A stretch of 62,437 nucleotides of DNA, counting the filler, from Sphacelaria rigidula (Eukaryota), in the NCBI GenBank assembly GCA_964200075.2. It is 7 parts of 7 records of this genome, joined end to end, with 100 filler letters (N's around TTAATTAATTAA, not from the genome) between each part and the next. Parts side by side here need not be neighbours in the genome. Positions count along the whole stretch, not along the records: positions 26,803 to 35,636 come from CAXNAA020009989.1; 6 more parts are not named here. One strand, written 5' to 3'. The translations under genes were made by a program, and so were the position numbers. Positions 7,831 to 62,102 of this stretch are shown one piece after another. The first letter of the stretch is position 1. Every line of letters starts with the position of its first letter. The notes below the pieces were generated by a model. That model saw only the letters and a list, made by a program, of their open reading frames with translations. It did not search any database and was not told the origin of the DNA.

Positions 7831-8696
7831 GTATGGGCCATGATTCAAAATCATTTTTAACCATCTCGTGGATGATGGGCGGTTGGCAGAAAGTTACCGC
7901 ATGGCTCGTGGGGGGAAACGTCCATGGTTATGGTTCACACATATATGAAACTGCTGCGTTGTTGGGATTTCGACACAAAGTTTTCACTTGAAAATACACC
8001 ATACCAATATTATCTTTGTCTACCGTGGAAAACAATATATAGGATACGACTCCCCCGCCACTGAATGATACCCCCGGTGATGCATTTTCGGTCGTCGTTA
8101 ACACCATAGCAACGCCTCCAGTAATAGATCGGGGTACGGTAGAGGTCACTGGTCACATGACTATGGTATGCAAGATCATGACCCCGTTCTGGGCCGAACA
8201 TTCTCAGCAGGATGCAGCTCACCCTTCAGACGACTCGCCGAACACATCACGGCGCTTGGCGCTTGATGATTGCGAGCCTGATCCGGCGAAAACCCGGCGT
8301 ACTCCATGCCGGGTTTGTAGGGACACTAAGCCAACAGCTTCATGACTACGGCATACAAGATAATACGTACATACCTCACCCCTCCCCCCCCCCCCCCCCC
8401 CTATACGCCACCCCCGGGTCCCAAGATGCCATTCCCGGGGGTCATGCACACCGTCACCCACAGTACCCGATATTCTTGGTGACAGCAGTGCGACAGAGGA
8501 ACAACATGTCGTAGAAATATTATACTCGGTGCAGTCAGTAGTCATCACCCACGCATATGAGATCATTTGACGCCCAAGCATGGACACCGCACAAAATGAT
8601 ACTTTCAACGTGCTTCAAAATGTCATGTTTTAGCCACTTGTGTCATATTTCCCTACTACCTCACTAAGCTTCGCTGCCCCCTCCCCGCCCGCCCGC

Positions 8697-8834
8697 GCTC
8701 CGTCTCAAAAGGGATGTGTGGTCAATGATCAAAGGACGAAGCCAAGCAACAGATGATTACCCCCCTCCCCCCCACCCACCTGCTCCGTCTCGGAAGGGAT
8801 GCGTGGTCAATGGTCAAACGACAAAGGCAAGCAA
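8697..8834. repeat. 85-bp tandem repeat at contig end; the same family begins contig 4 (26803-26857)
   Basis: gctccgtct...gtggtcaatg(a/g)tcaaa...caagcaa starts at 8697 and 8782. A homologous cgtggtcaatggtcaaatgaccaaggcaagcaacaaatga is at 26803. Confidence 0.8.
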
Positions 8835-8934
8835 NNNNNNNNNNNNNNNNNNNNNNNNNNNNNNNNNNNNNNNNNNNNTTAATTAATTAANNNNNNNNNN
8901 NNNNNNNNNNNNNNNNNNNNNNNNNNNNNNNNNN
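8835..8934. other. Artificial 100-nt contig spacer (N44-TTAATTAATTAA-N44); identical spacers at 17769-17868, 26703-26802, 35637-35736, 44571-44670 and 53505-53604
   Basis: Identical six-frame-stop linker embedded in Ns. The segments between spacers are 8834 bp six times, then 8833 bp. Confidence 0.97.
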
Positions 8935-13600: not shown

Positions 13601-16600
13601 CACCTATATCCCTGAACTGGCTTCATACGGCTTCACGTCCTTAACCCTAACGAGGTACTCGTATCTTCTTAGCGTGTTGGCAGTGCAATCTCCTGTAGCG
13701 AAAGACTCCTGCTCTACGGGGATAGAAACGCGTTAGGTGTGCCTCTGGAAATTTAGGCGAGCGATGTGCACTTTGACCCGAGAGTTCCAGATATGATGAG
13801 CAGCACTTTACACCACGCGCGAAAATTGTAGAGGAAGACACACCCACATGGATATGTAGGTACTTCCTCTGTCCAATAAGTAAAGGTACCTTAATTTGTA
13901 CGGGCCCTTAACGATGTCTGATCGGTTTTTTTTTCATGAACTCTACGGTGTTTTTTGGGTTGAGAAAATGTGTTTAAAATTTGCAGCTCGTGCTTGATCC
14001 ATGCCGCCGAACGGCTATAAAAGATTTAGTCGGCCCCAAGATGGCCGTTTTTTGCCCCTTTCCGAGGGGGAAAAAGTGTCGATATTTTTCCGATATTTTT
14101 TGTCGGGTGGGACTTCCTGGCAGCAAGCTCCAGTGAAGACGGGGGCTATTGAAAAAATATTTTAAAAAAAATCGACACTTTTTTCCCCTCGGAAAAAGGC
14201 AAAAAACGGCCATTTTTGGGCCGACTACTTTTTTGCAGCCGTTCGGCGGCATGGTTCAAGCACGAGCTGCAAATTTTAAACACTCGTTCTTCACCCAAAA
14301 AACACCGTAGAGTTCATGAAATAAAAAAAAAAGATCGGACATCGTGAAGGGCCCGTACAAATTCAGGTACCTTTACTTATGGGACAGGAATCATGTATGT
14401 ATGTATGTATGTATGTATGTATGTATGTACGTACGTATTTCACCTGTGATGCTGCAGAGTGTAGAGCGATCGGTCCGGTCAGTCACACCAGCAACCATAG
14501 GCAACACCTCAGAGTATCCCCCTTCCACACTTCTATACGCCTATACGCCCACTTATCCACTGACCCAGGAAAAGGAAACTCGCGCAAAAGAGGTCGAGGC
14601 AGAGAGACAGAAAGACCTCGAGCGCGCGCGTCAGCGAGATGAAGAGAGGGAGATTGAGTGGAGACAACGGCGGGCCGAAATCAGGCGCCGGTCTAGATCA
14701 AGGTCTAGGTCTAGGTCTAGGTCTGAGTCTACTAGGTCTCGCGGAGGTTCACGAGATCACCGCAGTGACAGGTGTGTGCGCGTTATACTCCAGTGTGCGT
14801 GTGCGTGTTTTTGCGTTGTAAGTGCATAGTGCAGATGTACATTATTTGGTACAAGACCATGTACCACCCCTTTTTCAGGTGTTGCACTTTGTGGGGTGAT
14901 ATTTCGTCGATCGTGTATATTTGTACACACGTCACATTTTTAGCTGGGCCGCCGAAGATGCGAACATGAATATTGAACGGCGATCGTGTTGCTCAATTTG
15001 TTGTCGTTTTTATGAGATTTTGACACGATATACATTGTATATGTGCGGAGACCCTAACTTCGCCCTTTTTTTGTGAGTTATCCGCGATTCAGTCCCGAAA
15101 AAATGTTTAGAAAGTTTCATAGAAAACGACTCAAAATTGAACCGCAAAATCTCGTTTTTTTGTCGAAAACCGGTTCCAATGTGGAAACGGACCGACCAAG
15201 GTGCGAACAGGAAAATTTGAGGCGCGGTCGCGTTGTTCAATTTTGAATTCAAATTCCATAAAACTCTGATATGATGTACATGAGGAATGTGCCAAGACCC
15301 TACTTGTACCCCCTCACTATTTGTTTTGGTGAGTTACCGACGTTTTTTATTTTTACCGGAAGCGGCTGTTGCGAGATCTGTGTCATCGATAGCTCACAAA
15401 GAGAAGTAAAAGAGTGGGAGGGAAATGAATGTATTTGCACCTTCATGTACATCATGTCAAAATTGTGTAGAAAACAACTTGAAATTAAACAGCGCAACCG
15501 TGTTTTCTGGCGAGAACCAGTTGACTTGCGTTCAGAGTTCAACAACCTCACCCGAAACTTGAACGTTCTACAAATGTTTTTCACCCACTACTCACCGATT
15601 CGCACACTACTACTAGATGCTTCGCGCGCTGGGGGCCTCGCCTGCTTCCCATCTTCGACATTGCGCGCCTACAGTAGAACACATACTGTTTCACAAGCAC
15701 ACCTTGTGCGGCACCACGACTTGCGACGGCAGCACAACCGACTGTAACCGAAAATTCGATTTGAGCCGTTTTTGTTTCTTCTAGTTCCGTCCTATATGTC
15801 ACCCTCAACTCTCTACATTTCGCAGCCAGTTACAGTTAGGCATTTCGTGTGGACGGAATCTTGTTGGATCGCAGTGCCACGTGAATTGAGAGACGCGCGT
15901 TGATTTGTCGATTACCAAGATCTGTCACAGTAGGCACAACTCGCGGTACATGGTGAGTTGGAACCGGCCGAAGAAAAGTGAGCCTCTGAGGCGGCCCAGC
16001 TTGTACCAGCCGCAAGGGTGGAGAGACATTGGTCGCTATCAAATAGCTCTTTTTCGCCTTCCGCGCCTGCTGCTTTTGCTCGCACTGACAAATATCGTAG
16101 CGGTGAACGTCAGATCGCGAGGTGCCGAGAACAACCTACATTGCATGGCGGGAATAATTTCAGTGGACTGTAGTGGCGTAGTGGGCTGGTGATGAAATTT
16201 ATGAAAAAATTGCTCGCTGTTCCGCCGCGTTCCTCTCCTATGCATGACGCATAGTGCTTGATGATCTCAGTTCTTGCTGTACATGTAGGATACCAGATAA
16301 GACTCAAAATTGGTGGTTTGGGGGTAGAATCATACGTGCAGATGGGATTATGGAATGTGTTTTTTCTCCCGACGAGACACGAGTATATTCTAAAACTCAG
16401 TGACCCGGTGTTTTTGTTCCGAAACGGCACTTTGTCATCCGAGATGTCACATTTTGTACCCGGCGATATTATTCCGACATGGCGACCCGATTCGGCGGAT
16501 TTACCCCGACTGTTGCGCGGATATATATAATTGACTCTTCCGAAGCATTTGCCATGCCCCTCTTGAATCCGAAAGGCAAAGTTTAAGATCTCACATGCCC

Positions 16601-17365
16601 AGCTCCGAACCGCGCATAACTTTTCCATTAGCATCTTCAACTCGGACGGCAAGAGTGCATCTCTCACGCAACCGTGTTCGAACCGCTATATGTTGAAGAC
16701 AAAGGGCACGTGGACGAAACACACTCAACAGCATCCACCGTTCATGTAGAGAATCTTGACTCTCGCCGAGCTCAGCATTCACTGCACCTTAGATGCCCCC
16801 CGCCCCCGCCCCCGCCTCCGCTCCCCGTCCAACAAATCGCGTACTACTCAGTGAAGCAGAGGTTGCATTGTGTTCCCTGAGCATACTGTACCGCGATGTT
16901 TATGCAGGGCATTACTCTAAAAATTATCTTGGAGCCATTTGCTTCTGCCTTATCCGTCCGTCCGCCTGTTCCGCGTTCGGGCCCATTTTCGAAATGTGCT
17001 TCGGGGGCAGACACCGAGACAGGGATAGACACAAGCACAGAAGCAGAGACAGGCACAGAAGTCGGGACAGAAGGAGAGACAGGAGCAGGGACAGGAGGGA
17101 CAGGAGCAGAGATAGTGATGACAGCAGAGACCGGAATAATGGCAGAGACAGGGAGAGGCGAAGCGGCAGAGACAGAGATAGACATAGAGGTAAGGGCAGG
17201 GACGGCAGAAGCGGAAGAGATGACAGAGATGGCCGTGACGACGACAGCGACGATTCCGTACCTCGCGCTTCTTCGAGGAGTTCAACCGGGGGTAAGAGTG
17301 GTGGCGGAGGCGGGAGTGGAAAGCAGCAGAGCGGCAAGACTGGGGGCAAGACCGCCGAGAAGAAG
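9393..17365 (+). CDS. Partial multi-exon gene for an Arg/Ser/Asp-rich splicing-related protein, CLASRP/SFRS16-like
   Basis: Phase-consistent GT-AG exons 9393-9598, 11291-11449, 14569-14771 and 17011-17365, with a possible 11-nt microexon at 9299-9309. Product includes RDGPTYEDIG...RQYITSFEVSD (cf. CLASRP RDSPTYDPY...ITFITSFGGSD), RSRSRSRS and a long RD/RS tract ending KTAEKK. The 5' and 3' exons are off-contig. Confidence 0.75.
10581..10652. repeat. (ATT)n microsatellite (intronic)
   Basis: Long perfect ATT run. Confidence 0.95.
10792..11012. mobile_element. MITE-like imperfect inverted repeat, same family as 25574-25855
   Basis: gttctcgccgtttt...ccctgaaagtttgcacgc...ctctgagatat pairs with atatctcagag...gcgtgcaaacttccaggg...aaaacggcgagagc. 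Confidence 0.65.
13861..14390. mobile_element. Stowaway-like (Tc1/mariner) foldback MITE, ~530 bp with ~230-bp inverted arms
   Basis: Left end TA-CTTCCTCTGTCCAATAAGTAAAGGTACC and right end GGTACCTTTACTTATGGGACAG. The arms are complementary over most of their length. An intact right terminus of the same family (cctttacttatggcacagaggaag-TA) is at 36134-36159. A (TATG)n run follows. Confidence 0.85.
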
Positions 17366-19811
17366 GTGCCAAGCGAAGAGTTTCCCCCCCTTGATGTCCC
17401 GATGTCGTAGTTTCTTTTGTTTCTGTGGTTGTGTGTCTTGTGTGTTCATGTGTGCGTATGTGGTGTGTGCGTTGCATTTGTCGTTGTTGTATTTTGTTGT
17501 CGGTTGTTGCGTGTTTTGCATCACTGGATTTGTTACGTCAGGCGGTGATATGTATACCCACGTCTTCGTCATGTGTAGACGCAAAGTGGAGGGCAGGCGG
17601 AATGATAGGGCTGCAACAGTGGAGTGTAAGCTGCTTGGGCGCTGTCGTTGGCGGTCGTTGGTGGTCCATCTGTCAAATATATATACATGTATATCGTTTT
17701 CGTTGCGGCGAACGACAAGCGAACCACCCCACCCCCGAAACCGCACACATCCACACCACCGCGCTGCANNNNNNNNNNNNNNNNNNNNNNNNNNNNNNNN
17801 NNNNNNNNNNNNTTAATTAATTAANNNNNNNNNNNNNNNNNNNNNNNNNNNNNNNNNNNNNNNNNNNNCAATCTCGAAACCTCGGAGCCAAGCGAGTCTG
17901 AAAAGTGGGCTAGACTCCTCTCTGTGGGGTGATGCAAAGTGTCCAAGACGTGTGTTGGCGGTTTTCCCTGTTTGGGGATCAAAAGGGGGGTCAAATGTTC
18001 CCAAGGTGAACAATCCGTGGGCCAAAAATCTGTTTGCCATAACCCCCGGCCTTAGAGCGATTTGAAGTTTTTGCAAATACTATAAAATGTTACTACAATT
18101 CCGTGAAGAAAAAATGTGGAGGCATCTCCAGAAATTTTGTGCGTCCTGGTGTATTTTCGGCCAAATTATCTGGAAATTTGGCCGATTCGGCAATTTTTCG
18201 TGCGGCACGGCTGCGCCCTGGTGTTCAACCTGGTAGAACTGCTTCTTATTACAGAGAGTTCGAACCCCGACACGACCATTTTGTTTTTTGCGCATATTCT
18301 GGAATAGGGCCTTGCATCTAGGGGGTATATAGCGCAGTTTGAGGTCGTACTCTTCCCTCCTACAGTAGTCAATGACCGTCGGCTGGGAGATTCCATCATG
18401 ATGGAGCTGTTGACGACCTTTATGCCATCTTGCAGCACTACTCGTACCAGTGTACTTTTGCCTGTGCATGTCGGGGCTTCGCGTGCCTGTGCCGCGCAAT
18501 TCTCTACCTCAACTCCACCGCATTTCGGGAAACGAAACGTTTCCAGATTAGTGACGCTACTACGGTAGGGTTCCACTTTTTGAGCCAAAATGTTTCTCGC
18601 GGTGTTACACGGATCATTTTGAAAATCGACATCATTTTCACTTGGAAAAAGACCTAAAATAATCCCGATTCACGAAAAGGCCCCGGTGTGCATCTCCACG
18701 TTATGTCCCCGGAGACACGCTTTGACGCAACGACACTGAACGTTTCCGGTACTCCATGCAGTACAATGATATCATCGCCAGAACTTTGCCAATCGATCAG
18801 CGGCGGTGCCGTGCATTACCAGGTTGGTCTGCAGTTCACAACGACATGCTCGAGTCGAGCTGATTTGGTAAACTTGACGAGTCATGGCTGGAGATGCAAA
18901 TGCGGGATATACTGCTGGCCCAGCTCGTTATCTGCGTAAACAGGGTATCGTTGGTACGGTACCCCCAGGAGGAAAGAAGCACCGAGAGTCGTCCCCACGA
19001 GCGCAGTAACATCGTTACGCTGCGGCAAAAAACGATGGATGACCAGCGGTGAATTACGTTGCGTTCCAAGTGTCGAGTAGGAGCGTGGGGCTCCACATTC
19101 AGTCATCCGAATGGTCGCCTGGGCCACCGGTTTTTTTGGGGCTGCCATAATTTCTGGTGATTGTATCGCGTTGGTGTTTGTTTTGCTAGGTTATACTTCA
19201 ATACTTGATTATACTCTATTTTGGGTCGTCAGTCCGTGACCTTGGAAGGTGTCTGTATCTGAATACGGAAGTAACAAGTATTGACCAGATGTTGAAACGG
19301 TTTTGAATGTGAAGACAACAACAATCAAGAACTTCAGGGGAGCTCGAATAGTAGAAACCAGCGTCTCTGGCATATGTTTATATAATTGTATCCATGTACG
19401 ATACTTTTCCATATCGCTCGGCACCCTCCCCTCGATCCTCAGGAAAAGCTTCTTGCAACAACAGCAATTTCCGCGTATAGCAAGATGACGCGTCCTGAAG
19501 CAAACCCTGCAAGCCGGCCAACCCCTTATGCCCCTTCCCGTCCATCTTTGCTACATGACCAGCACCATCATAGGTTACGACCATTCCCTAGAGTACTGCC
19601 GGTGCCAGAGGTGCACAACACAGCAAAGTATAGACGTCGAGTACACCTGCGACGAACGGAAGCACGGCTCCGTTTTCCCGCACCCTCCTGAAAGTAAACG
19701 TCGTCTTAGAGGGAGACCTCGTGAACAAATATCGAAATGGACCCTAAATTGCACATCTTCACGAGCTAATGAAAGACAAAACTCATGAGAAGCACGGCAG
19801 TTTGTTAATGT

Positions 19812-25900: not shown

Positions 25901-27273
25901 TGCAAAAGTGTTTATGTTGAGTCATTTTTTGGGAAATACCCGAGGTTGTCCTTCAATGGGTACGGTTTTTTGTTATGGCTGGGGTATTTTCCCGGGTATT
26001 ACCTGTTCCCGAAAGTTTTGAAACTTGTCAGAGTCAGACTTTTAAACCCCTACCCGAAAGTTCTGGGAGTCCTGCTCGCCTTTCATATCCTTACCGGGGG
26101 CACGGGTATACCCCAACAAAAATACCCGGTTGTGGGTCCGGTATTCTGTTCAACCTCCATACCCTACCCAACAAGTTCTGTAAACCTCGCATACCCCTAC
26201 ACGGGGTTACGGCATATCCTTGTACATGTACCTGATGCAGATACCAGCACAGGTATATACCCTGGGGAGGTATGGATACAAGGTCACACAGTTTGATAAC
26301 CTGAACTTGTTTTTCACCCTCCATCAACGAACCCCCTCATTCTTTCAACATCCACAAAGAATTAAAAGTTGAAAGGTTTGTACTCTGACGACTGCTGGGG
26401 TACCGTTGAGTGGAATAAAGACCGTCAGGATAAATCACCCAGACACGAGTGATGGCTCGAGTGGGGACGGTTCAACTGGCCACCGGGGGAATGAAGTAGC
26501 AACGTGCAGGTGATTGACGTTAATGGTGGTCATGTCCAAGATTGTGTTCTGTAGGGTACGAGTATTTTTTTGGGCAATGGCCTAGAAAAGGTATACCTTG
26601 TCGTTTGTTGCCTAGGAAAGGTACGAAAAACGGCCAGAATCGCGAAAACAGCCAAAAACGCCATTGCGACCGTTTTCGCTCCGGATTTTTCACGCACATC
26701 GTNNNNNNNNNNNNNNNNNNNNNNNNNNNNNNNNNNNNNNNNNNNNTTAATTAATTAANNNNNNNNNNNNNNNNNNNNNNNNNNNNNNNNNNNNNNNNNN
26801 NNCGTGGTCAATGGTCAAATGACCAAGGCAAGCAACAAATGAGTACGCCCCCCCCCTATTGTAGGATCACTCAAGAGTTGTTCCCAGCAGAAATAGACGC
26901 CAGGGTGCTGCGAAAGAACTCACAGCAAAGCAGCACCAGATAAATGAACGTTTTGCAGTACGCCTTACGTGTGCCAATCAATGGGACACGCATCGCTGTG
27001 TTTATGCCCGCTAAAACAACAAAAAATACACTTATGCGAAATGCCTTTTCCACGAAGAACTTAGTTGAACCGATAACAGTACGTCGGCGCAGGCATCATC
27101 ATGGTCACACAAGAACAGCTCCACCCTGTCGCAACGACACGCACGAAATCCGGGGCTGAGGCTGCGGATATTAGTATACCATCGAACTCTTCAGGCGAAC
27201 CGGGCGCTGAGCTACAGATCGGCGGGCAGCAAGCATGTCACCATCACCCTAACTTGCGTTCGTGTTGATGACA

Positions 27274-29343
27274 CTAGGACAGGCGGGGGGACGAAGCCGA
27301 AACTGCCAGCTCAATCTTCACGCCTTCCTCTTTCCCATGAAATACCACTGAAAAAGCATCGACGGCAGCGTCTTCTACCCGAAGGTGTTCACCAACCATC
27401 GTCGGCCTCCTGCAAATCCGCTTCTTCATTCTTTCATCGCAATTATCGCTAGAGCTACAGCCAATCGTGCTGCTCTCACTTTCATCAGAGTACGTGGCCC
27501 CGCCATCATCCCTTCGCAAACTCTGCCTGGAACACTGAAGGGGAGCAGACGCTTCCAATTTCACCCTCGTGTGCGGCCTTGTCCATAGAGGTTCCCCTTC
27601 GGCACCCTCGGCGGGCTGCGGCGGCGCGGTACCAGCAAGTTCAGAACTCACGAGCAAACCAGGACCGAACCCGACATCACCTACACCACCCTTGTGACTA
27701 GTGGAATACTTGGGTTGTCCGTCCTTGGTTGAACTTCCATCGAAGATGTCTCCATGTTGCCCTTGCCCAATTGCTCGAGATCCGGCATGTTGGCACACGT
27801 TAATCTGTTCGACGCTATCAACGCGGTACACACACCGATTCGAACAGCCTTTGTTGCCGTACTTCTTGCTCACTACACTGACCATCCCCGGCCCTGCGTG
27901 GTCGCCACAGAAGAGTCCTACCCTACTTCCCGCTGCACCGTGCGATGGTCGTTTGGAGCAGCCCTCGCTGCCGCACTTCTTGTTCGCTACATTGACCATC
28001 CCTGCCCTGGCGTGATCGGCACAGAACTCCGCCAACCAACTTCCCGCTGCACCGTACGCGGCATGTTTGGCGCAGCCCTCGTTGCCGCACTTCTTGTTCC
28101 TCACATTGACCATCTCCACCCTCGCGTGATCGGCACAGAATTCCGCTTTCCGACTGCCCGCTACACCGTACGATGGTTGTTTGGAGCAGCCCTCGTTGTT
28201 ACACTTCTTGCTCGCTACATTAACCATCCCTGCCATGGCGTGATCGGCACAGAACTCCGCCTTCCGGCTTCCCGCTACACCGTACAGTGGATATTTGGCG
28301 CAGCCCTCGTTGTTGCACTTCTTGCTCGCTACATCGATCATCCCCGGCCTAGCGTGGGTAGCACAAAACTCCGCCAACCGGCTTCCCGCTACACCATACG
28401 ATGGTTGTGTGGAGCAGCCCTGCTTGCCGCACTTCTTGCTCGTTACATTTACCATCCCCGCCCTAGCATGACTGGCACAAAACTCCGCCTTCCCACTGCC
28501 CGCTACACCGTACGATGATTTCTTGAAGCAGCTCTCGTTGCCGCACTTCCGCTTCGCTAAATAGATCATGTCCGCCCTGGCGTGATTGGCACAGAATTCT
28601 GCCTTCCTGCTTCCCGCTAAACCGTATGATGGTTGTTTGGAGCAGTCCTTGTTGCCGCACGTCTTCCTCACAACATCAATCATCCCTTCTCTGGCATGAT
28701 CGAAACAGAACTCCGCCAACCGGCTTCCCGCTATACCGTAAGATGCACGTTTGGAGCAGCTCTCACTTGCGCACTTCTTGTTCGCTACATTAACCATCCC
28801 CGGCCTCGCGTGATCGGGACAAAACTCCGCTTTCCGACTGCCCGCTACACCATACGAAGGTATCTTGGCGCAGCCCCCGTTGCCGCACTTCTTGCTCGTC
28901 ACATTAACCATCCCTGCCCTGCGGTGATGGGCACAGAACTCCCCCTTCCGGCTTCCCGCTATACCGTGAGATGCACGTTTGAAGCAGCTCTCATTTGCGC
29001 ACTTCTCGTTTGCTACATCGACCATCCCCAGCCTCGCGTGATTGGCACAGAATTCCGCCAACCGGCTTCCCGCTACACCGTACGATGGTTTTTTGGAGCA
29101 GCCCTCGTTGCCGCACTTCTTGTTCGTCACATTGACCATCTCCACCCTCACATGATCGGCACAGAATTCTGCTTTCCGACTCCCTGCTACACCGTACGAT
29201 GGGTGCTTTGGGCAGCCCTCGTTGCCGCACCCCTTCTGCTCTTTTTTCACCATCCCAACCCTGTTCGCCGGCTCTTCCACGACGTCGACGCCCGTTGCGC
29301 TATCTCGTGAAACTTTCAAGCTGCCCTCCGAGCGTTCTACCAA
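27274..29343 (-). CDS. EsV-1-7 cysteine-rich repeat protein: 12 full and 1 degenerate 38-aa C-x4-C-x16-C-x2-H repeats plus a low-complexity C-terminal tail
   Basis: Uninterrupted 689-codon ORF; the track start is TTG and the first in-frame ATG is at 29253, giving 659 aa, so an upstream exon is possible. Tandem 114-bp units with consensus KKCGNEGCSKxPSYGVAGSRKAEFCADHARAGMVNVxx match the EsV-1-7 motif of brown algae and phaeoviruses. Confidence 0.92.
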   Translation of the reverse strand: MVERSEGSLKVSRDSATGVDVVEEPANRVGMVKKEQKGCGNEGCPKHPSYGVAGSRKAEFCADHVRVEMVNVTNKKCGNEGCSKKPSYGVAGSRLAEFCANHARLGMVDVANEKCANESCFKRASHGIAGSRKGEFCAHHRRAGMVNVTSKKCGNGGCAKIPSYGVAGSRKAEFCPDHARPGMVNVANKKCASESCSKRASYGIAGSRLAEFCFDHAREGMIDVVRKTCGNKDCSKQPSYGLAGSRKAEFCANHARADMIYLAKRKCGNESCFKKSSYGVAGSGKAEFCASHARAGMVNVTSKKCGKQGCSTQPSYGVAGSRLAEFCATHARPGMIDVASKKCNNEGCAKYPLYGVAGSRKAEFCADHAMAGMVNVASKKCNNEGCSKQPSYGVAGSRKAEFCADHARVEMVNVRNKKCGNEGCAKHAAYGAAGSWLAEFCADHARAGMVNVANKKCGSEGCSKRPSHGAAGSRVGLFCGDHAGPGMVSVVSKKYGNKGCSNRCVYRVDSVEQINVCQHAGSRAIGQGQHGDIFDGSSTKDGQPKYSTSHKGGVGDVGFGPGLLVSSELAGTAPPQPAEGAEGEPLWTRPHTRVKLEASAPLQCSRQSLRRDDGGATYSDESESSTIGCSSSDNCDERMKKRICRRPTMVGEHLRVEDAAVDAFSVVFHGKEEGVKIELAVSASSPRLS

Positions 29344-31659
29344 GCTAGCATCGCCGCCATGTCGACAGAACGAAAGGCTCTAGCACTCTCAATATCGGCT
29401 GCTTCTGGCAGTCCCACTGACGAATGGCCAGAAAACAGGGGCAGGCTGTCCCTCCGGATGCTGCCTGAGAACAACCAACGGATTCAACAGCCGGGTCGAG
29501 GATTCTCAAGTGTTTGTCAAATGCGGCATACAGTACTTCGAGGGGAATAGTGAGTGCAGGATGTTCATATCTCGCGTGGGCCTCAACTATGTGATAAGCC
29601 CGGGTAGGCCTTCGCTCTGTCGAATGTTCCATTTCCACACGTAGGGCTGCCGCTTCGTAGAGAGCTTTACAAAATCTTACCTATTTCCTCCACTGAATCC
29701 GCCACTGGATTGCGCAACCCATGAAAACAAGCAACACAAACACAGGGTATCTTAGTTGGCCTATACGAGAAAATCGTAGCCCACCCTCTGTTGCCGTCAG
29801 GTGTGCCATGCAGAAAGCTTGACACAATTCAAATGCATGTGTTTCACAAATGTCTTTGCCTGAGAAAACCTCCTTCACTCAACTTTAGCTATTTGCGCCT
29901 TTAAAGCGACATGATTCAGAGGATGGTAACGTCCTCGTCGTAAGTACCACCCTGAAAATTTGTGCACTAGTACGTGCTGCCGCTGTAGTTGTGAATATTG
30001 ACACAACTGGTCGAGAACTCCGGGCCTCGAAAGGAAGGCAGATTTTTCGGCGACTGATGTCCACAAAACCTTCAATTTCCGCAACACTCACTGACATGCT
30101 TGCAACAAACGAGTACGGAAAACTATCGAATAAGCACGCGAAGCTACAATACAAAAGACACGGGATAAACAACCGGAGTTGGTTTTTCCAAGAATGAGTC
30201 GGGAGACCTTTCAAAAATGCACGGAGTCCTGATCTATCCTCGGTCAATTCTGACCCATCTTCCAAGCGACAGCTTAGGAAGATGACATACTCGAGGGAAG
30301 GCAATTGAAACGACTGGTGGCGATAATAAAAGCAACGAACGCCAGAGTTCCTACTTTTTCATGCGAGAAGCGGGAGTCAATGCCTTGCTGAATGCCAGAC
30401 CTACTCAGTACACTTAGACTCAACGTAACCAGGAGATGATGGGAAAAACCTATACAATTCGAAATGTACGATAATCAAGCTACCCAAGTTAACGTTTTGA
30501 AGGAGTAGTGAGTATCGGCGTCTACAGACTAAGGACTGTCCATTACGTGGGCACGTCGCCCAGTCACGGTATAGCTCGAGCGGTGAAGCTCATGATCGAA
30601 GACATTCACTTCGCGGTGGTTGGAAATTATAAAAAGCTCAGGTACCGCCTTAGCACCGGTACATGACAATCCCAATGAATTCTGGTCAACAGGTCATAAC
30701 GAATGCATGGCCACATCATCTACGCTCAACAAATACACGATCCTTGACGAAGCCATGATGGTCTGCGCCATTTACTTGAAGTTCCTCCATATTATGCCTC
30801 GAGGGTTGATGCTGAGTTTGCGAATAAAAATGGCTTCACATGTGCAGGGAGATACACCATATGCACCGCCCCCCGTGTGTTTCACGAAATACAACAAAAT
30901 ATGTGATTGGGACATCCTTTTGTATGTGGTCGGCGTAATCTTGGATCGTTTGGCATGGATTGGAACCGAGGTGCTGGAGAAAAAAAAAGGAGTCAGGAGC
31001 ACACGAAGGTAAAGCGAGTTTAGCACGAGCACTTTGGTCACATTAGCCCCCGAAAAAATTGCGATTTCTGCAAACGATAGGATCAAGACATGATAGCGCC
31101 TCCAAGTTATACCATCTCAGTGCACAGGACGTGTGAATATTGCTATACGAGCAAATTACACCCAGCCTCAAACACGAGACTAGGGGCGATGGTTCTGAAG
31201 CACTTAATTCAGCAGGTCGATGGACTCCGGTTCTTGTAACCTTCGCGTTTTGTTCATGATCACGTTGTACATGTGGCATTTGTTCATTTGTTCATTTGTT
31301 CCTGGTGCCGCATACGGGCTCTCCGTCATATTCGATTGTCGCACACTAAGTGATCCCCTAGTAGTGCAGGCGTGGTCACAAGATAGGCGTGCTCCAGCGA
31401 CGAAAGGTGATCATTCGCTATCAACAGTGGAAACTCGAGCGAGGGTAATGATGAAACAAATGTGATGAAAATAGGGTACACATGGAACACGTGCTACAAA
31501 CGTACTACATGTGCCGTCACGTAGACCACTCTTGAACTTACTCTCGTTCGACGATACTGAGTCTGACTGCAATCCTGTCTGATTATTTGCTCCCACGCCG
31601 ATGACATATTGTTACGTGTCTTGTTAAGAGCGACATCACCGCTGGCGTGCAATCAGTTC

Positions 31660-32960
31660 TTCAGCTATCACGCACAAGCGCTTCTCCATAGACAGGACCC
31701 TTCCGAACTCCCCTCGTCATGCTCCCAACTTGCCCTCGGACGGTACAACATTGTGAGTAGGAGCCAAACCTAGACGGGCCGCTAAGGTTTTCGATACATG
31801 TCGATACTTTGCATCGTAGACAGCACCCATTCGGGTCTTGACGTGCGCTATAGTTGGGAGTATCGAGGCCGGAACGTACGTTGGGTTCGTGTCGGCATGT
31901 GCTTGACACGAGGTTGCCCCCCAAGCAACATGTTTCAACATGTACTCCCCCGCCGGCTCTGGATACATCGACAGATCGGTATGTCGAGTCAAGACAGCAG
32001 ACAATAGTTATCGGACAACGTACGTCGAGCACAAACAATGCAAAAGGCATTGATACATTATCCCACAAAGTTCCCCTTCGGGAGGTTGGTACGGGCCTCC
32101 CGGGGGTGATGCGAGTCGAAAATAAAAGGTTAAGAGACGCTGTTGAATCTCAACGCCCAGTAGAGTTCGTGGCTGTACAAAATATCGCACGTGTTATCGG
32201 ATGGTGGCTCCGGATAGGGTTTACCGACTTGAGTAACACGGATCTGAAGGTTGTACAATTGTTGGGCGGCAATAATTTCGATATGTGTGGCATATGCGTA
32301 CGGATACGACATGAGCTGAATGTAATGTTGAACGCCAGTGTACGTTCTGTCGGGAAAACCAGCAGCCCGTATCTGTTCGAGATCAGTTCCAGCCGCGACC
32401 GAAGCTTGCAGTGTCATTCACCCAGAATATGGAATTGGATCATGAAGGTGTTCGGAAATGCGTTGGATAAGTTGCATCCCACTAATGTGTGCGCATTTGG
32501 GTAGTTGGAAGCTCGTCGGGCAATATATCGTAGCGAGCAAGCTCCGTCTATAATTTCATTGACTTATTCCCCAGTTCGTCGCGGATGTTGTTGGTAATCG
32601 TTATCATCGTTTCCGTAATTGTGGCCGCCACGGCCGCTGTCAGCGTCATCGCTGTTGGAGCCTGTGTCACCGCTGACGCCGGAACAATTGGCGTGCGACA
32701 TGTGCGGTATTCCCGAGGTGGCAGAGTGCGAAGTAGCTCTCGTGTCACGAAGACATGACAGCGGGAGGCACTTATAAATTATTAGAATGCGTGGAATATT
32801 GTTGGCATGCTCTTCTTCACTTGGGAAGCTCGCGGATATGTTCTTTCGTGCTTCGCTCTTTCTCTGCACGTGAGAGTTGCGTCTTTTTTCAAAAGTCGGC
32901 CGAACTTTCCACCGGGCCTTTTTCATCGGTCTTTTTTTCACCGGGCATGTTCTTGAAGTG
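31660..32960 (-). pseudogene. Degenerate OTU-like cysteine protease domain with flanking basic and Cys-rich segments; probable transposon (Helitron-like) remnant
   Basis: Minus strand reads IDGACSLRYIARR...PNAHTLV (DGxC box at ~32537-32548), then after a frameshift YIQLMSYPYAYATHIEIIAAQQLYNLQIRV...DILYSHELYWAL. Downstream, CLRC...E...YSQCC..RGQV resembles the Helitron N-terminal Zn motif. Confidence 0.55.
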
Positions 32961-33639
32961 CTGTCGTTTTTCGCCGCTCATGAAAGTTTGCATTTCTCCG
33001 GATAAAGGAGTGGTAGTTCTTGTCTGAAACGATTGCATATCACTGTGGCTACCGCATCACCGGGCCTTTTGCTCCAAACAGGTTGATTGCTTTTTGCGGG
33101 AAGATATTGCTGTGCCTTGTTCAACTCGCCAACAGCTCACTGCACGGTCCAAGGCAATCTTCGACTGTTTCCAACTGCTTTGCTCTCATGATTTCGTGGA
33201 ATTGGCGGCATAACCGGTGTGTTCGTGCTCCCAAATGAACGAGAAAGCGACAAAGAGAAACACGGGGGTGAAAAAAAAAATACCCCGCCGAAAGTAATCC
33301 TGTTTCAACTTTTCCGTCACCTTGCAAAGGCTTTCGTGGTTCGGGATCGACACCTCGCGAAAAAGGGGAAGTTTGAGCGAGTTTCGGTGGTCGGAACACG
33401 CGCCACAGGTGTCGGATGACACCCACACCTGAACGGCAATGTACCGCTGAGCTTTTTCAGTGTGCTGCAAAAAAAAGCGCGGGAAAAAATACCTCGCCGC
33501 CAGAGAAAACTCGGGAAAAATGGTGAAACATGTGGAATGATATGTGTACATGTGTAGTTTACACCGCGGGCCGTCGACGTAGTGCAAGAACAGTACATAT
33601 TCAGAACATACCGGAAAACGTGTCGGGGGTGTGTCGATA

Positions 33640-33893
33640 GGTTGCATCCAACACAAGATTGCACCCTTCTCGAACTCGCGAAAACAGTACAAACTCAAAT
33701 ATGCGACCTTTCGTCACCGGGAAAACGTCATTTTGAGTTCGGCGCACGAATCTGTCCCGGTGGTATACTTGAACTTAGAGTGGTTCACCGTTTTGATGGG
33801 CTGCATCATCAACAGTAACAGAAAAACAACCATATCTTGCCCAACAAAACGTCGATTGTAATCGTCACTTTTCCATCAACGGTTCCGAGAGGG
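33640..33893. mobile_element. piggyBac-like element terminus
   Basis: Ends ...ttttccatcaacggttccgagaGGG|TTAA (33894-33897). Homologous to 40572-40800 (inverted) and 56270-56345. Confidence 0.65.
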
Positions 33894-36800
33894 TTAAATG
33901 TCTCGTCGGCACATGTTGCACCTTTAGGTCCACCCGTATATCCCACGCCCAATACACATCCTGAACTCATTTACGTCCACCCTCTAAGGCACTCACTCAC
34001 GCACAGTATGTTGTGCCGGCAATATATCGCCCCTTTCGGGCGTGAAACATGTTGCACGGTCAACACATATTGCGCTTGTCCAGTATGTAATGTTATGCAC
34101 AATCGATATGTGTCACTGCACCTACCGAAGGAACATGCTGCGCGGATAACATATCTCCAAGTCATTCGTGACCGGCTATATGTACGACGGATAAAAACTA
34201 CATTCCTGAATCGGTCTACAAGTTGTTTGCTTAATACATACCGACTCGCCTTTGCGCCAGGATATCGTTCAGTCAACATATGTAGCATTCCGCAAATGAC
34301 GTGATTGTAGAGTACATTATATCACGTCAGGCACAAATTCGAGACAAATTCAAGGTTATCTTCAATTCCCCGTGAGTTCGGACGGATTCCCTGTTTGATT
34401 GACGAGATATCCCGCCAGGACGTAGAGGCGTGTCCATTTTTTTCATCTCTCCATCACATTAGCCAGGTTTTTCAGACCCGCAGTCGAAAGGTAACGTTCC
34501 GGGGTAGCCACGCAAAGAGGCATTACTTCTCCGGAGGGGAGCATCTTACTGCGGAAGCGAGCTGCAGGCTGGAATGCTTGCCCTCTGGAAAAAGCATAAC
34601 ATCAACACGGAGCTCGGACGAGAAAACCCTAGGGCCGCTTTTTGTAGACTGAAAAACGTACCTGGGAAGAGTCGTTTTTGTCAGTCTCCAGAGACTTTTT
34701 TGCAGAACGCGACCTCAAAGGGCCATTTTGCATGAAAGACTCTGGGAACTGGTCACAATTAGCAGACAGCGGGATTTCGCCAAATCTCTCTGCGAAAAGT
34801 AATCGACTCGCAGAGACTTTTCTCTGTCTGGGAATTGTCGTTCCATCACACATTCCTCGCACACCGCACCCGCAATGGTACAGTCAGTGCTCCATCGCAC
34901 ACTCCTCGCATACAAGCGTAGTACAGCCAGTGCAAAAGTATGAATAGTTGTCCATGTTGTGTGTGCAGTACCGTGGCAACAGCATAGCTGCTGCCGCACT
35001 CTGAGCATTCCCTTCATGACCGTAGGACCAGGTGGCTGCGTTGACTGCTCGTATCGCTTCATACTCGTCGCGCCCGTCACCGATTGCGGACTCTGTGGTA
35101 TTCTGCGTCCTGAGACGGTTGCTACCGCACTACGAACTGTCAGGTGAGTTTGTTGTGTGCGGTATGGCACAAACCGTCTGCTGCACACATTGCACCGCTT
35201 GCGACAAGACTACTGTACCAAGCGGCGATCGGCTGAAGTAAGACTTGATACGCTCATCATTTCGATCCCTATAATACCAGTAGCTACTGTGCGTGTGCGT
35301 GTGCGTGCGTGAGTGTATGTGTGTGTGTGTTGCCACCCCATCCATCCTGTACCTCGACAGGATTATTTACGTGTTGGTTTACCTCAGGTGGCACAAGCAC
35401 AAAATGCAAATGACCACTACCAGCGTCTGCACGCAGGCTAGGTGATGGCCTTGGGTGTACAAATCCACAGGATTTTTTTTTCATAGACTATAAGGTGGGT
35501 TCTGAAAACTAATTTCTCTGGAGAAAGTCTCCGAGAAAAGTCATCCAAAATGACTTTTCTCAGGGGCAATCGCCAAAAACCGGTATACCGACGGTGTTTT
35601 CGCCAACATCCGGTATAGCTCACCCCCCCCCCCCCCNNNNNNNNNNNNNNNNNNNNNNNNNNNNNNNNNNNNNNNNNNNNTTAATTAATTAANNNNNNNN
35701 NNNNNNNNNNNNNNNNNNNNNNNNNNNNNNNNNNNNAATATTGGGAATTTTGGCGGGTTTTCTGGGATATATTTGAGAACTATTATGAGAATTGCCTTGG
35801 TTTTAGTGTGGGGGTTCACTAGTATACTGTTTTTAGTATGGGGGCGCGTCATGGTTCGTTGAGTAGAGGGGGGGGGGCTAGGTTTGGGGTTAGGGATAAT
35901 TCTTGGTTTTTTCCTCTTGTTTTTGTCAGTGCCCCGCCCTGGAGGGGGGAAAAATACTTGCAAAATGCGGCCTTTTTCAGGCCGACTGGTTTTTCCTCGG
36001 CCGCTCATGCACGCGGGGTGGTGCGTGCAACAACAAAAAAAACCCGGACTTTAACAAAAAAAACTTCAAAGATTTTAAAAAAATGGTCGCCGGCGGCATC
36101 GGACACCGCTAAAGGTCTGTGTAAACATAAGGACCTTTACTTATGGCACAGAGGAAGTACACTGCCTCATGGGTGTCTCACCTTTCAATCACTACGTAGT
36201 ACGATCATCCCCTTCGCGCTGAGTTAAGGTTTTCCCACCCCGCACAATATGATCTAGCTCGACCATCATCATGGTGACCGCAAAAAAAATGCAAGCAAGC
36301 AAAAAAAAACGGATACCTGGTTGCCTAGCTTACGCAGTGAGAGGCGTGTTTTACAACGTCATCGCCAACCGACGACAACCTCAGCGGGGATCCGCCCCTA
36401 CAAAGCCAGGACGGAGCACGCCGGGTTTTCGCTGGACCAGAGGGAGGGGATAAAATGAAAGATACGATCGCGCACCCTTGTTTTACTTCGATTTCGGATC
36501 TCGCGTCAATTTTTCTCAGGCGCTGACGGCATGCTACAGCATTTCTGTTTCAGACGACAGAGAGATCCAATCTCCTATTGGAGCTTGGTGGGAATACTTG
36601 ATGGAGGACAAAATAAGCACCGGTGCAGACCCGAGCTAAACCTTCGAGCGTGACAATTGGGTACGACTCGCTCAAGATAAATTGACGCGTTGCTGGGCGT
36701 TTAAAGCAATTTTCAAGCGGTTGGGTCCTACCGGGTTCATGCCATGCAGGTATCTTTCAAATTTGTGAGTCTCGCGATATTTTTGTCTACCTCTTGTGGC

Positions 36801-57272: not shown

Positions 57273-58389
57273 TCAAGGGTTCAAGCCGGTCTCGTCTGCG
57301 GAACGCACAGCCGCACGCACCAACCTGCTTTCAGTCGGCAGAACCACACCACGTTTCCCAGATTGCCGTCCTGAGACACTGGTGATAACTCGCTTCGTGT
57401 CACCCATGCCGGTGTCGGGCAGAGCGGAAAGTGATGCGCCCAGAGATTTATAACTTGTCAGCGCGAAGCTTCTCCAGCCTGATTTCATGGGTGCTACTAC
57501 CCGTGACGGCAGGGATTTTCGAGAGTGCAGAAGAAGATTTATTTCGAACCAAACCGTGGGCGCTAAATCCAAGGGCAGCCCGAAGAACAAAATGGGGGAT
57601 CCACGCCCGTATGGGGTCGCAGTATCGATTAGCATGAGAGCGAAGATTAATGGATTCACCACAAGAACGAAACCTATCACTAACTTTATTTTCTTCCTGA
57701 GTCCATCGATGCGTGCGTCTTGTATGTTCCTGGCGGTCATCATGCCCCGATCCCCCTTCTTGTGTGGAGCAGGTCCCCGATTGCTCGCTAGAGAATCCTC
57801 GATGTTCCGAACAACCGACAATCCACCTGCGATGGTAAAACCAGCCGCGAGGACAGCCTCTATGCACATGGCACTTATACCCACCTGACAGCCCAACACT
57901 GCCAGGTTCATCGTTGCCAACACGGCCATAGCGACTCCAGCCAGCGGTAATACAGCAAGGATGATATTCACGTAGCCCGACTTCGACAGCACAGCAGAAG
58001 CCCAGCAAATAAGGGGGCTGTGCTTGATTAACCGGAAATCGTTGCTGGCATCCATGATTCGGAGAAACAGCAGGAGCGACGGTGAAATCACAAAACGTAC
58101 GTGCGTGTTGTGGGGTATCAGAGATGTGGACCGAGCCAGTACCAGTCAACCTTGTATATACTGCAATAGTTAAGAGCAGGTCTACCTTCTACCACAAGGC
58201 ATGGGCGGGCGGAGAGAAGTTGACTCCGTTATTGAATGTAACACGATGTTCCACATGATTAGACAACCATTTTGTGCTGTTTGTCGGGGCAATAGCGTTA
58301 GAACTGCGGTTTCAAGACCGTCACTGGCGATATACGCCCTCATTCGTACGGTCCAAATGCTGGTGGCTAAGATAAGCAATTCCCGTATT
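57273..58389 (-). CDS. 3' exons of a multi-pass membrane protein, 7TM/GPCR-like architecture (partial)
   Basis: Exons 58389-58186 and 58044-57273 join in phase (AG|C gives Ser). There are about six hydrophobic helices, a long basic loop (RIDGLRKKIKLVIG) before the penultimate helix and a Ser/Thr-rich cytoplasmic-type tail. Upstream exons were not resolved. Confidence 0.65.
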
Positions 58390-59381: not shown

Positions 59382-62102
59382 TCCCCTATCCCCTGCCACT
59401 GCTCCAATCATGCATGCGATTATACTGAAACCTACGGCTTGGTATCATTTGGCTACAGCACCCTTAAAGCGAGTTCAAGACGAACGAACGAGCTTCACAA
59501 CCAAAACAAACCAAGGCAAAATCGCATGCACCAGATCACAAAGAAATACCATACTCCGACGCTAATTTACTTGTCGCCGCCCGAGTCAACCGCATTTTAC
59601 GCAGTTCCTTCGAAACAAACTCAGGCGCAGAAGAATGAATCTTGCGAAGAGACTCCCACGTACGTTCTTCAGCACCGAACCCTTCCCAATCGACCAAAAC
59701 AATGACATCACCATTGCCATCTTCAGCGACGTGCACCAAAGCATTCATCCGACATTCACCTTGAGCATACGAATGCTGAAATACATGTTTTGTTCCCGAG
59801 TGATGTGCAACTGCGAGTCGGCATAGAAACGTAAACGAGCGACATGGGCCGAGTGCACGGCGCCAGAAACAACGATCTGCACCGAATACGCGTGAGCGTG
59901 ATCGGCTCCGACCACTCGCCACGGACCTGTCCATGTGGACATCAACTTTGGCGTCACACCTTGCCTGCGAACACGGACGTGTACATACAACACGAAATCG
60001 CCAACTGCAAACTTGGGCAACACAGCCTGGCCCTGAGCAAGCTTGCGTTTGGTTTCGTGACACACCGCGACAGCAGCTTGCACTTCGTTACAAAACTGCA
60101 CTTGCTCGTCAACCACGCCTCGAACCTCGTCACGCCACGAATCAGCCCCCATGACATCGATGTTCCACTCGCCGCCAGTGACAGAAGCCAGCGCGGAAAA
60201 CGCTCTACGCGGCGCACGCCCAAACATCACCCTATACGGAGTGTTACGGCAACGGTCACAAAGAGAAGTATCCAACGCCCACTGAGCGGCTGACGAAACA
60301 TCAACCCATTCAGACACCGGCCGTCTCTATTCCGACAAAATAGGCGGCAACACGCAAATAGCCTCTTTCGTCATGCGTCCACAAGCACAATTCGACCAAT
60401 GGGTATACGCAACAGCAAGTTGGTGTTGCACCTTGAGCGCGTCGCTCAGCTGCGCGATCGCTCGATTCTTGAAGTGCGTGACGGTATCACCAACCCACAT
60501 GCGCGGCACCCCCAAAGTCTTGCACGAACGGAGCAAGTGCTTAGCCGTATCCTCGGCGGTGCAAGCCTCGGTCGGCTCCAAGCAAACGGAATTGGACAAA
60601 CCATCTATGATAGCCGAAACGCACCGAAAACCATCCTTACCGGGCAAACCATTAGCACCTTCAGGTCCGCCACTTCCGGCGTACAGAAAATCAAAGTGAA
60701 CAACTTCACCTGGTGCAGTACCATGCACAGTATCGCCATACAGACGAGGTACAATCGCACCAGCACGAGTGTCTGCACAATGCAAACACTGGCGGACGAA
60801 CTCGCAAACGTGGGAATCCATGTGAGGCCACACACGGTATTTTTTCAAAGGAAACGGAGTCGGCGCCACGCCACGGTGACCAGCCGACTGTATGTGAGCG
60901 CACATCATCAAGCGAGTTTGTAGAGCCTCATCATCCGACGGAACCCGCAGAACATCACTACTGCCAACCCGCAGGCGAGACAAACCATCGTCAGCCAAAG
61001 CAGCTTGACCGAAAGTCGTAGGGAAAGAAAGAACACCGTCACCGACTGTTTTGCGCTGCGCGGTACGAATGACATCTAACGAGGGCAGGGAACCATCGGC
61101 ATCACACGGGCTGTCCACGGCAATAGAACGAACAGGCACGCTAGGAACCTTAGCCAAGCAAGCTTAACCTGACGTAAACAAACCGCCAGGCGTTACGATC
61201 GAGAAGATCTCCCGAGCCTGCGGTGCCAGAGGCATCTGCCAATACCCATGTAGCAGGTCCAACGTGCCGAAGCATTGGGCTCCCAGCAATTCCCGCATGT
61301 CTTCTTGGCTTGGCATCACCCCCCGGAGACTGTTCCACTTGCGCGTTCACCGCCTGGTAGTCGCTGACCAAACGGAATGTGTCCCTCACGGGCACCGCTA
61401 TCGCCGGACTCGCCCACATAGCCTGAATGTTCCTCACCACCAAACCAAACGCCACTATATTTGCGATGCATAAAGCAAGCCACACGGTCTTCACCGGATC
61501 GTAGCGGCGAGGCTTGATCCTCACAGTCTCCACCATTGGCTCTACGCGCTGGTGGATCACTACGCAGCGCACGACAATGTATCCACGCGACGAGCCAAAA
61601 TAGCACGCAGACACTGTGCGCCATCGGCGCTCAGACCCTTCTGCTCGGCCTGCTGCACGCTATCCTCCAGCGCACGTTCTCTTGCACCTCTCTCCTCCAC
61701 AGGGTCCATGAACATGTCGGGCTCCCGATCGACCGAGCGCTCCACCGCTTCATCCGCAGGAGCCCCCTCCTCATTGGCGCTCTGAAATGACCGTATAGAT
61801 ACAACCACACGCCTTGCAGCACGATAGCTGGGATTTTCCACGCCGGCTTGCACCGGCACAGCACGCCGGCGTAACTTATCGAACACCAGCGGGTACAAAT
61901 CACTCCCGAACTCCTTCATCGTCGCCATTCCAGCTAGGACCACGTTGTCCCTACCGGGCATGACAGCGGGGGTAATGGGCTGCAACCCCACAGCCCTCCA
62001 CGGTGTACGCACGCTAATAGTAATAGGCACCGTTTTACGTATAACCGTCACGACAGCACCCGTGGTGGTCTGAGTCGTTTGCGGTCCGTTTACGAACAAC
62101 AA
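58897..62102 (-). mobile_element. Internally deleted, frameshifted Ty3/gypsy chromovirus-type LTR retrotransposon
   Basis: In order on the minus strand: protease/linker remnant (61560-62102); RT N-terminus RRYDP...SPAIAVP...FRLVSDYQAVN...LQGYWQMPL...TPGGLFT; deletion of RT core/RNase H near 61170; integrase HHCC (AHIQSAGHRG...RQCLHC) and DDE (VHFDF, WVGD); WTGPWRV; chromodomain (VDWEGFGAEERTWE); PPT at 59382-59394; 3' LTR. Confidence 0.93.

Follow-up and report, generated by a model that had tools for sequence, protein, structure and literature searches.

A twelve-repeat EsV-1-7 gene of Sphacelaria rigidula: repeat shuffling, site-specific selection and a possible role in nuclear DNA recognition

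Gene structure and genomic context

The window analysed here – 62,437 nucleotides from the Sphacelaria rigidula assembly GCA_964200075.2 – consists of seven unrelated contigs of ~8.8 kb joined end to end, with identical 100-bp N-linkers at positions 8835, 17769, 26703, 35637, 44571 and 53505 (period 8934 bp). The gene described here occupies the minus strand of only one of these (CAXNAA020009989.1, 26803-35636), and the other genes of the window are therefore not its neighbours. It codes for an array of EsV-1-7 repeats followed by a tail (Table 1). Elsewhere, the window contains the remains of a disrupted LTR retrotransposon that match integrase and chromodomain families (59536-61961, minus strand), a set of Arg/Ser/Asp-rich frames that are probably exons of a splicing-factor-like gene (14401-17410, plus strand; one frame was scanned, with no Pfam match), and a 260-aa frame with several hydrophobic stretches and no Pfam match (57273-58055, minus strand).

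Table 1. Features of the EsV-1-7 gene and its surroundings (positions within the window)
Feature	Position	Strand	Basis or remark
Artificial contig linker (N44-TTAATTAATTAA-N44)	26703..26802	.	True context of the gene is 26803-35636 only
Segmentally duplicated block	26869..34631	-	~67-89% identical, non-coding, common to ~40 other contigs
Single-exon CDS of 659 aa (12 EsV-1-7 repeats and tail)	27274..29253	-	ORF and Pfam scan
SUMO-consensus site 2, VKIE, near C-terminus	27310..27321	-	Motif search
Basic NLS-like motif RMKKRICRR	27406..27432	-	KKRI nearly invariant in subfamily
SUMO-consensus site 1, VKLE	27553..27564	-	PH..VK.E nearly invariant, 26 aligned tails
13th repeat, degenerate, first Cys replaced, running into tail	27757..27870	-	Residue inspection
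Array, 12 exact 38-aa C-x4-C-x16-C-x2-H repeats	27871..29238	-	TRF, residue inspection
Exon start, untranslated	29254..29464	-	In-frame stop 29382-29380 between acceptor and ATG
Splice acceptor AG behind T-rich tract	29465..29466	-	35/37 paralogues; RNA-like contigs end at 29465

The open frame spans 701 codons (27274-29379), of which 659 remain when translation begins at the first in-frame ATG (29253); the start at 29343 given in the initial annotation is a TTG codon. The gene had also been described as intronless, which applies to its coding part but not to the transcript as a whole, because a T-rich CAG/G acceptor (29466-29465) lies 211 nt upstream of the ATG. Only 15 of 2648 nearby dinucleotides equal this acceptor in conservation. 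In three RNA-like runs from two studies – their RNA status being a guess – exact-match pieces cover the gene and end at ~29465, whereas coverage in a DNA-like run carries on past this point; these contig ends are a weak hint of a spliced and expressed transcript, with contig depth being no measure of expression. The gene is thus very probably spliced, with its coding region within one exon, and the in-frame stop between acceptor and ATG places the intron in the 5′ UTR. A search for the donor site and first exon did not locate them, and no KRAB-like coding exon was seen upstream of the gene.

Organization of the repeat array

The repeats are spaced at exactly 38 aa (114 bp), and PF19114 recognizes 12 stretches (E 1.6e-173; 562.6 bits against a curated cut-off of 25), with TRF reporting a period of 114 and 12.2 copies. 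The array is basic (pI 9.3; 70 K/R versus 36 D/E). Its count of repeats, the twelve pentapeptides at C+1 to C+5, the string of residues at C+3 (HKRIRQKQYQHR) and the patches shared by repeats 1/10, 3/5, 2/5/8/11 and 9/10 are all as initially annotated, although the accompanying portrayal of a nearly invariant scaffold is overstated: the C, C, C and H residues are invariant in 12/12 repeats, with omega of ~0 at these four sites, but protein identity between repeats is 47-82% (mean 65%). Within the gene, variability peaks at C+3 (2.46 bits), with positions 28, -3, 24, 6 and 34 close behind; the C+3 codon of repeat 1 is at 29205-29203 and the later ones follow at 114-bp steps. Position 30 is a near-invariant Met in every repeat, so that 5′-broken copies could restart at the next repeat, and several paralogues have long frames opening mid-array.

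An AF2 model of five repeats, built on a 98-row alignment, has a pLDDT of 83.5 and a pTM of 0.50, and predicts small, well-formed modules, each combining a hairpin of short strands with a one-turn helix, whose arrangement along the chain is only loosely fixed; from a single sequence the pLDDT is 35. No solved structural relative emerged from three PDB structure searches, which is not evidence of a new fold, and the only matches to treble-clef domains were weak 28-residue ones to ArfGAP (E >6), small modules being easily missed. An Atlas search with PF19114 excluded gave no usable match.

A drifting tail that retains SUMO-consensus and NLS-like motifs

The 200-aa tail behind the array evolves almost neutrally, with divergence at second codon positions of 0.140 compared to 0.152 in the flanks. 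Near-invariant columns number 22/185, among them PH..VK.E, KKRI and K.E, and the motifs RMKKRICRR, VKLE and VKIE reported earlier are all present, their types being conserved across paralogue tails. The psi-K-x-E motif – described in part of PMC7915335 as the SUMO consensus – is found in 28/28 closed tails of the same subfamily and in 46/48 of other subfamilies (shuffle means of 3.5 and 6.0), mostly twice per tail (24 and 37 tails, respectively); the other subfamilies have RGTKRKR-like motifs in place of the RMKKRICRR type. The tails therefore drift neutrally yet keep psi-K-x-E (74/76) and a basic NLS-like motif.

The pattern extends beyond this genome. Among the best 120 homologues listed, psi-K-x-E occurs in 39 of the 76 that do not have the nuclease-like domain described below (6.4 expected), although many are proteins of the same or a closely related species and hence not independent cases, and it is also present in Ascophyllum, Pylaiella and Scytosiphon proteins. 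SUMO-like domains were found in the S. rigidula genome. Conservation of psi-K-x-E is suggestive rather than proof of SUMOylation, and SUMO is not always repressive.

A large family spread by segmental duplication

A first look at the 244-Mb genome gave 4575 candidates for the repeat, and the core repeat motif has 2878 exact matches compared to 31 for a control. With 11.2 matches per sampled gene, this corresponds to a family of at least ~255 genes; long arrays are over-represented in the sample, so that this figure is a minimum. Among named proteins, the closest homologues come from brown algae.

The non-coding sequence shared by the copies (Table 1) probably comprises intron, promoter and 3′ UTR. 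Where homology ends is specific to each pair of copies, reaching 13.7 kb upstream with no common terminus, and there is neither codon periodicity nor a conserved second ORF upstream of the gene; segmental duplication rather than transposition accounts for these features, and a transposon reading of the shared flanks was ruled out on the same grounds. The DDE_3 and THAP families, searched in the genome, gave no match. Dispersed repeats found on many other contigs have inserted upstream of the gene at 32065-33551 and 34633-35563, the former (~32065-33551) nested within the duplicated block. Contig ends (26803-26860, 8677-8834) carry a short repeat of very high copy number that finishes in a run of C, and it cuts off the 3′ homology of this copy at ~26869.

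Many copies appear to be maintained. Excluding 12/40 subfamily genes that are not scorable, the ORF is intact from first repeat to tail in 20/28, against a neutral expectation of 0.4-11%, and it is broken in the other 8/28.

Arrays shuffle faster than their flanks diverge

The nearest paralogue has 17 repeats, and repeats 1-8 of the two genes are collinear, whereas repeats 9-12 of the gene described here correspond to repeats 12, 14, 15 and 16 of the paralogue. None of the 12 other pairs listed, some with flank divergence of 4-15%, is collinear throughout, and the C+3 strings differ in 120/120 sampled genes. Repeats are added, dropped and rearranged as whole units at a pace exceeding that of flank divergence. 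An incompatibility-versus-distance test is significant in 32/51 arrays, to which within-codon linkage may contribute, but not within this one array (p 0.14). The intragenic recombination initially proposed from the shared patches is thus borne out as modular shuffling across paralogues, but not by this array taken alone.

Selection at three of the 38 repeat positions

Codon evolution was analysed in 1529 repeats from 120 genes, using repeat pairs that are mutual nearest neighbours from different genes, in windows centred on the test codon with that codon left out. Four-fold sites served as the clock, with a divergence of 0.147 compared to 0.152 in the flanks. Pooled repeat omega is 0.5-0.6, and 3/38 sites lie above neutrality: C+3 (omega 1.75, LRT 14) and two neighbouring linker positions, 34 and -3 (MVNV-x-x-KKC; omega 2.0, LRT 31 and 32), with values at all three stable across four thresholds. 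Positive selection had been anticipated from C+1 to C+5, but C+3 is the only one of these that shows it, C+1 being neutral (1.15) and C+2, C+4 and C+5 under purifying selection (0.6, 0.4 and 0.6); the strongest signal, at the linker pair, had been missed.

Neutral evolution with duplication and conversion was simulated 160 times: C+3 attained an LRT of 14 in two runs, both in the heaviest recombination regime (2/44), while any site did so seven times (1/28 in a separate set) and none reached 31. Heavy recombination raises the omega of neutral sites to a mean of up to 1.27. Within the gene's own subfamily alone, C+3 is marginal (LRT 3.9, or 1.8 with a longer clock) and -3 is neutral. Taken together, the codon tests support diversifying selection at C+3, 34 and -3. 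The C+3 alphabet (Q411 R340 H186 K171 L106 versus E15 P7) is 75% R/K/H/Q/N and 1% acidic, and it is chemically filtered, since E and P are also one step from Q codons yet are rare. Site 34 alternates mainly between V, R, K and A and site -3 between S and N, sets that form no obvious base-reading alphabet. Covariation among the variable sites is weak and mainly between near neighbours.

Giant-virus relatives carry a nuclease-like domain

In 44 of the 120 best homologues listed, the array is followed by a domain with an invariant PD..ExDExxH..RxNPD motif, a pattern that we take to be typical of Vsr/PD-(D/E)xK-type nucleases. Pfam, PHROGs, NCBIfam, PDB sequences and phage records provided no nuclease family for it, and we refer to it as nuclease-like from the shape of the motif and from database names: among the structural matches to the array are Faunusvirus, cedratvirus and Pithovirus proteins that carry the name Endonuclease, as well as EsV-1-7 itself. 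Atlas clusters for the domain are 80-100% viral. It is absent from the tail of the gene described here and was not found in the S. rigidula genome with one query, and psi-K-x-E is not enriched in the 44 proteins that carry it (5/44). Helicase-associated (HA) repeats precede the array and nuclease-like domain in two homologues (P0074 and P0081).

With the viral alignment as query, IMG/VR contains 492 matching stretches; a viral scan with the algal sequence as query gave no match. Among the IMG/VR loci fetched (L181-L260), 77/80 have at least three repeats and the motif in one ORF. Flanking ORFs from 62 loci were scanned (89/129), and a major capsid gene adjoins the array gene in 13/62, with RNA polymerase, topoisomerase, thymidine kinase and helicase as other neighbours; varied core-gene neighbourhoods are expected of free-standing homing-type endonucleases. 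These widespread giant-virus proteins, joining a repeat array to a nuclease-like domain, are unnamed in the profile libraries searched.

Discussion

The gene belongs to a known family – PF19114, which includes IMMEDIATE UPRIGHT (IMM) and EsV-1-7 – as the same repeat is present here, far above the Pfam cut-off. Excerpts of published work describe EsV-1-7 genes as the largest brown-algal orthogroup, with a developmental regulator among its members and a molecular function that is not known (10.64898/2026.04.27.720984; PMC7457493), and those of 10.1101/2024.02.19.579948 put the expanded family at as many as 335 genes in one brown-algal genome, suggest that the domain is a zinc finger of a novel kind and name no ligand; family expansion, a possible zinc finger, viral affinity and IMM have thus been published, as far as these excerpts extend (10.1101/2024.02.19.579948, 10.64898/2026.04.27.720984, PMC7457493, PMC12993054). 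IMM combines five repeats with an N-terminal domain unique to it, whereas the gene described here has twelve repeats, almost no N-terminus and a tail with two SUMO-consensus sites. Per-site selection, SUMO tails and a viral nuclease link were not found in the EsV-1-7, brown-algal and giant-virus-endonuclease literature searched, a scope that excludes the IMM paper and preprint supplements, and the main text of 10.64898/2026.04.27.720984 has no occurrence of DNA-binding, endonuclease or SUMO. The family is therefore known, and the functional reading that we propose is new and testable.

We propose, with a probability of about 0.58, that the protein reads DNA in the nucleus and acts through SUMO by way of its tail, working in the manner of KRAB zinc-finger proteins without being one of them. 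The gene would be functional and belong to a large family with rapid turnover, whose products are nuclear repeat proteins that bind DNA sequence-specifically. Each 38-aa repeat would form a small self-contained module built on three Cys and one His, probably holding zinc to judge from the ligand pattern. The modules would chain flexibly, and the target would be set by how many there are, how they are ordered and which residues occupy the three hypervariable sites (C+3 and the linker pair). The tail may act as a freely drifting spacer with an NLS-like motif and two psi-K-x-E sites, and because it keeps only these, its effector is probably SUMO, recruiting co-repressors. The array may derive from the one that would guide free-standing giant-virus endonucleases to their targets, or the two may have a common origin; the alga would have retained the reader, with a SUMO tail where the viral proteins have the nuclease. 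A target in transposons or viruses would be plausible. Arrays that scramble so fast could, on the other hand, forfeit any specific target, which counts against this explanation.

Several known systems offer parallels. With KRAB zinc-finger proteins, which in tetrapods combine one-exon arrays, segmental duplication, finger turnover and selection on few residues (PMC4592553), the gene shares a single-exon array, segmental duplication, gain and loss of repeats, positive selection on few residues (here 3/38) and a small putative repression module. It is unlike them in its C-x4-C-x16-C-x2-H pattern with no zf-C2H2 match, in a predicted module without a long recognition helix, and in having the array N-terminal and the putative effector C-terminal; the 659-aa ORF has no match to the KRAB domain, and the in-frame stop parts any upstream exon from it. 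Giant-virus array endonuclease-like proteins (Nucleocytoviricota) have the same 38-aa repeats, ~3-17 per array, and share with algal arrays a preference for Q/R/I at C+3, but end in a CxxC and PD..ExDExxH..RxNPD domain where the algal protein has its low-complexity NLS/SUMO tail. TALE and PRDM9 likewise evolve in concert as near-identical tandem repeats with few hypervariable residues that include an adjacent pair. TALE repeats are helical hairpins of 33-35 aa, however, and the fold and length differ here, with 38-aa Cys/His repeats predicted to form a hairpin plus short helix and no match to the TALE family in the Pfam scan. The WRKY19-type zinc finger (PF24906), a shorter model of 24 positions, matches several homologues (e.g. 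P0073, E 5e-13) but not this protein in the Pfam scan.

The initial annotation had envisaged a programmable DNA or RNA binder, and its nucleic-acid-related context is upheld by the giant-virus nuclease-like fusions and by an Ectocarpus Mariner transposase with an N-terminal EsV-1-7 domain (reported in part of PMC12477816). Basic three-Cys-one-His modules with an R/K/Q/H-rich variable site would suit RNA equally, and small RNAs are involved in Ectocarpus TE control (same source, in part), so that the arrays might bind transposon or virus transcripts instead. The fusion partners nevertheless act on DNA – a nuclease-like domain in DNA viruses and a DNA transposase – which, together with a repeat spacing unlike that of CCCH RNA fingers and no CCCH family in the Pfam scan, makes RNA as the ligand improbable. 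Alternatively, the arrays might serve as scaffolds for protein binding or as sensors akin to immune receptors, with viral proteins as one conceivable ligand, diversified like the LRR/TPR of brown-algal ROCO and NB-ARC genes; brown-algal immune candidates (from part of PMC3341825) show the same combination of birth-and-death, shuffled repeats and diversifying selection, and the best weak PDB matches (E >0.8) are mixed zinc/cysteine-rich domains, several of them protein- or sugar-binding. We consider this distinctly unlikely given the near absence of acidic residues at C+3, an ORF in which the Pfam scan shows no signalling domain, signal peptide or GTPase, and the same DNA-directed fusions and NLS-like and SUMO-like tail.

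Two further explanations do without a specific ligand or a host function. The high pooled omega, the near-neutral tail, the broken copies and the C+3 signal attainable under the heaviest simulated recombination would all fit a duplication-prone, loosely constrained family, in which unequal crossing-over makes the repeats unstable, gene conversion inflates omega at surface sites, and the proteins bind chromatin non-specifically or are largely redundant. Linker sites above all 160 simulations, a filtered C+3 alphabet, motifs kept across otherwise very dissimilar tails, and ORF retention make this explanation unlikely. A virus-related domain and ~40 dispersed copies sharing several kb of non-coding flank might also suggest that a transposon or an endogenous giant-virus insertion carries the gene, and that it does not belong to a host family. 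This is highly improbable in view of the pair-specific homology ends, the lack of an upstream coding signal, a spliceosomal-type acceptor, and a genome in which one query did not find the viral nuclease-like domain.

A fuller version of the DNA-reader proposal is more tentative, and we regard it as doubtful in its entirety. Here, brown algae would have converted the array of giant-virus homing-type endonucleases into programmable DNA readers of a third kind, independent of C2H2 fingers and TALEs, with modules that read bases through C+3 and the linker pair and acquire new specificities by shuffling; the SUMO tail would silence transposons or integrated giant viruses, providing H3K79me2-type repression with a sequence-specific guide in organisms that have neither DNA methylation nor H3K9me or H3K27me3. 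Ectocarpus is described as being without H3K9me and H3K27me3 and as having negligible 5mC, and the mechanism of brown-algal transposon silencing as ‘largely unknown’ (both in the part of PMC12477816 concerned); any downstream silencing must therefore differ from the KRAB-zinc-finger type.

The analysis singles out three residues in each repeat, two lysines in each tail and the viral array-nuclease fusions, so that the function of EsV-1-7 proteins and the silencing of transposons become directly testable. Where the viral enzymes bind or cut could reveal a code and, should the repeats prove modular, the 38-aa unit would offer a new scaffold for targeting DNA.
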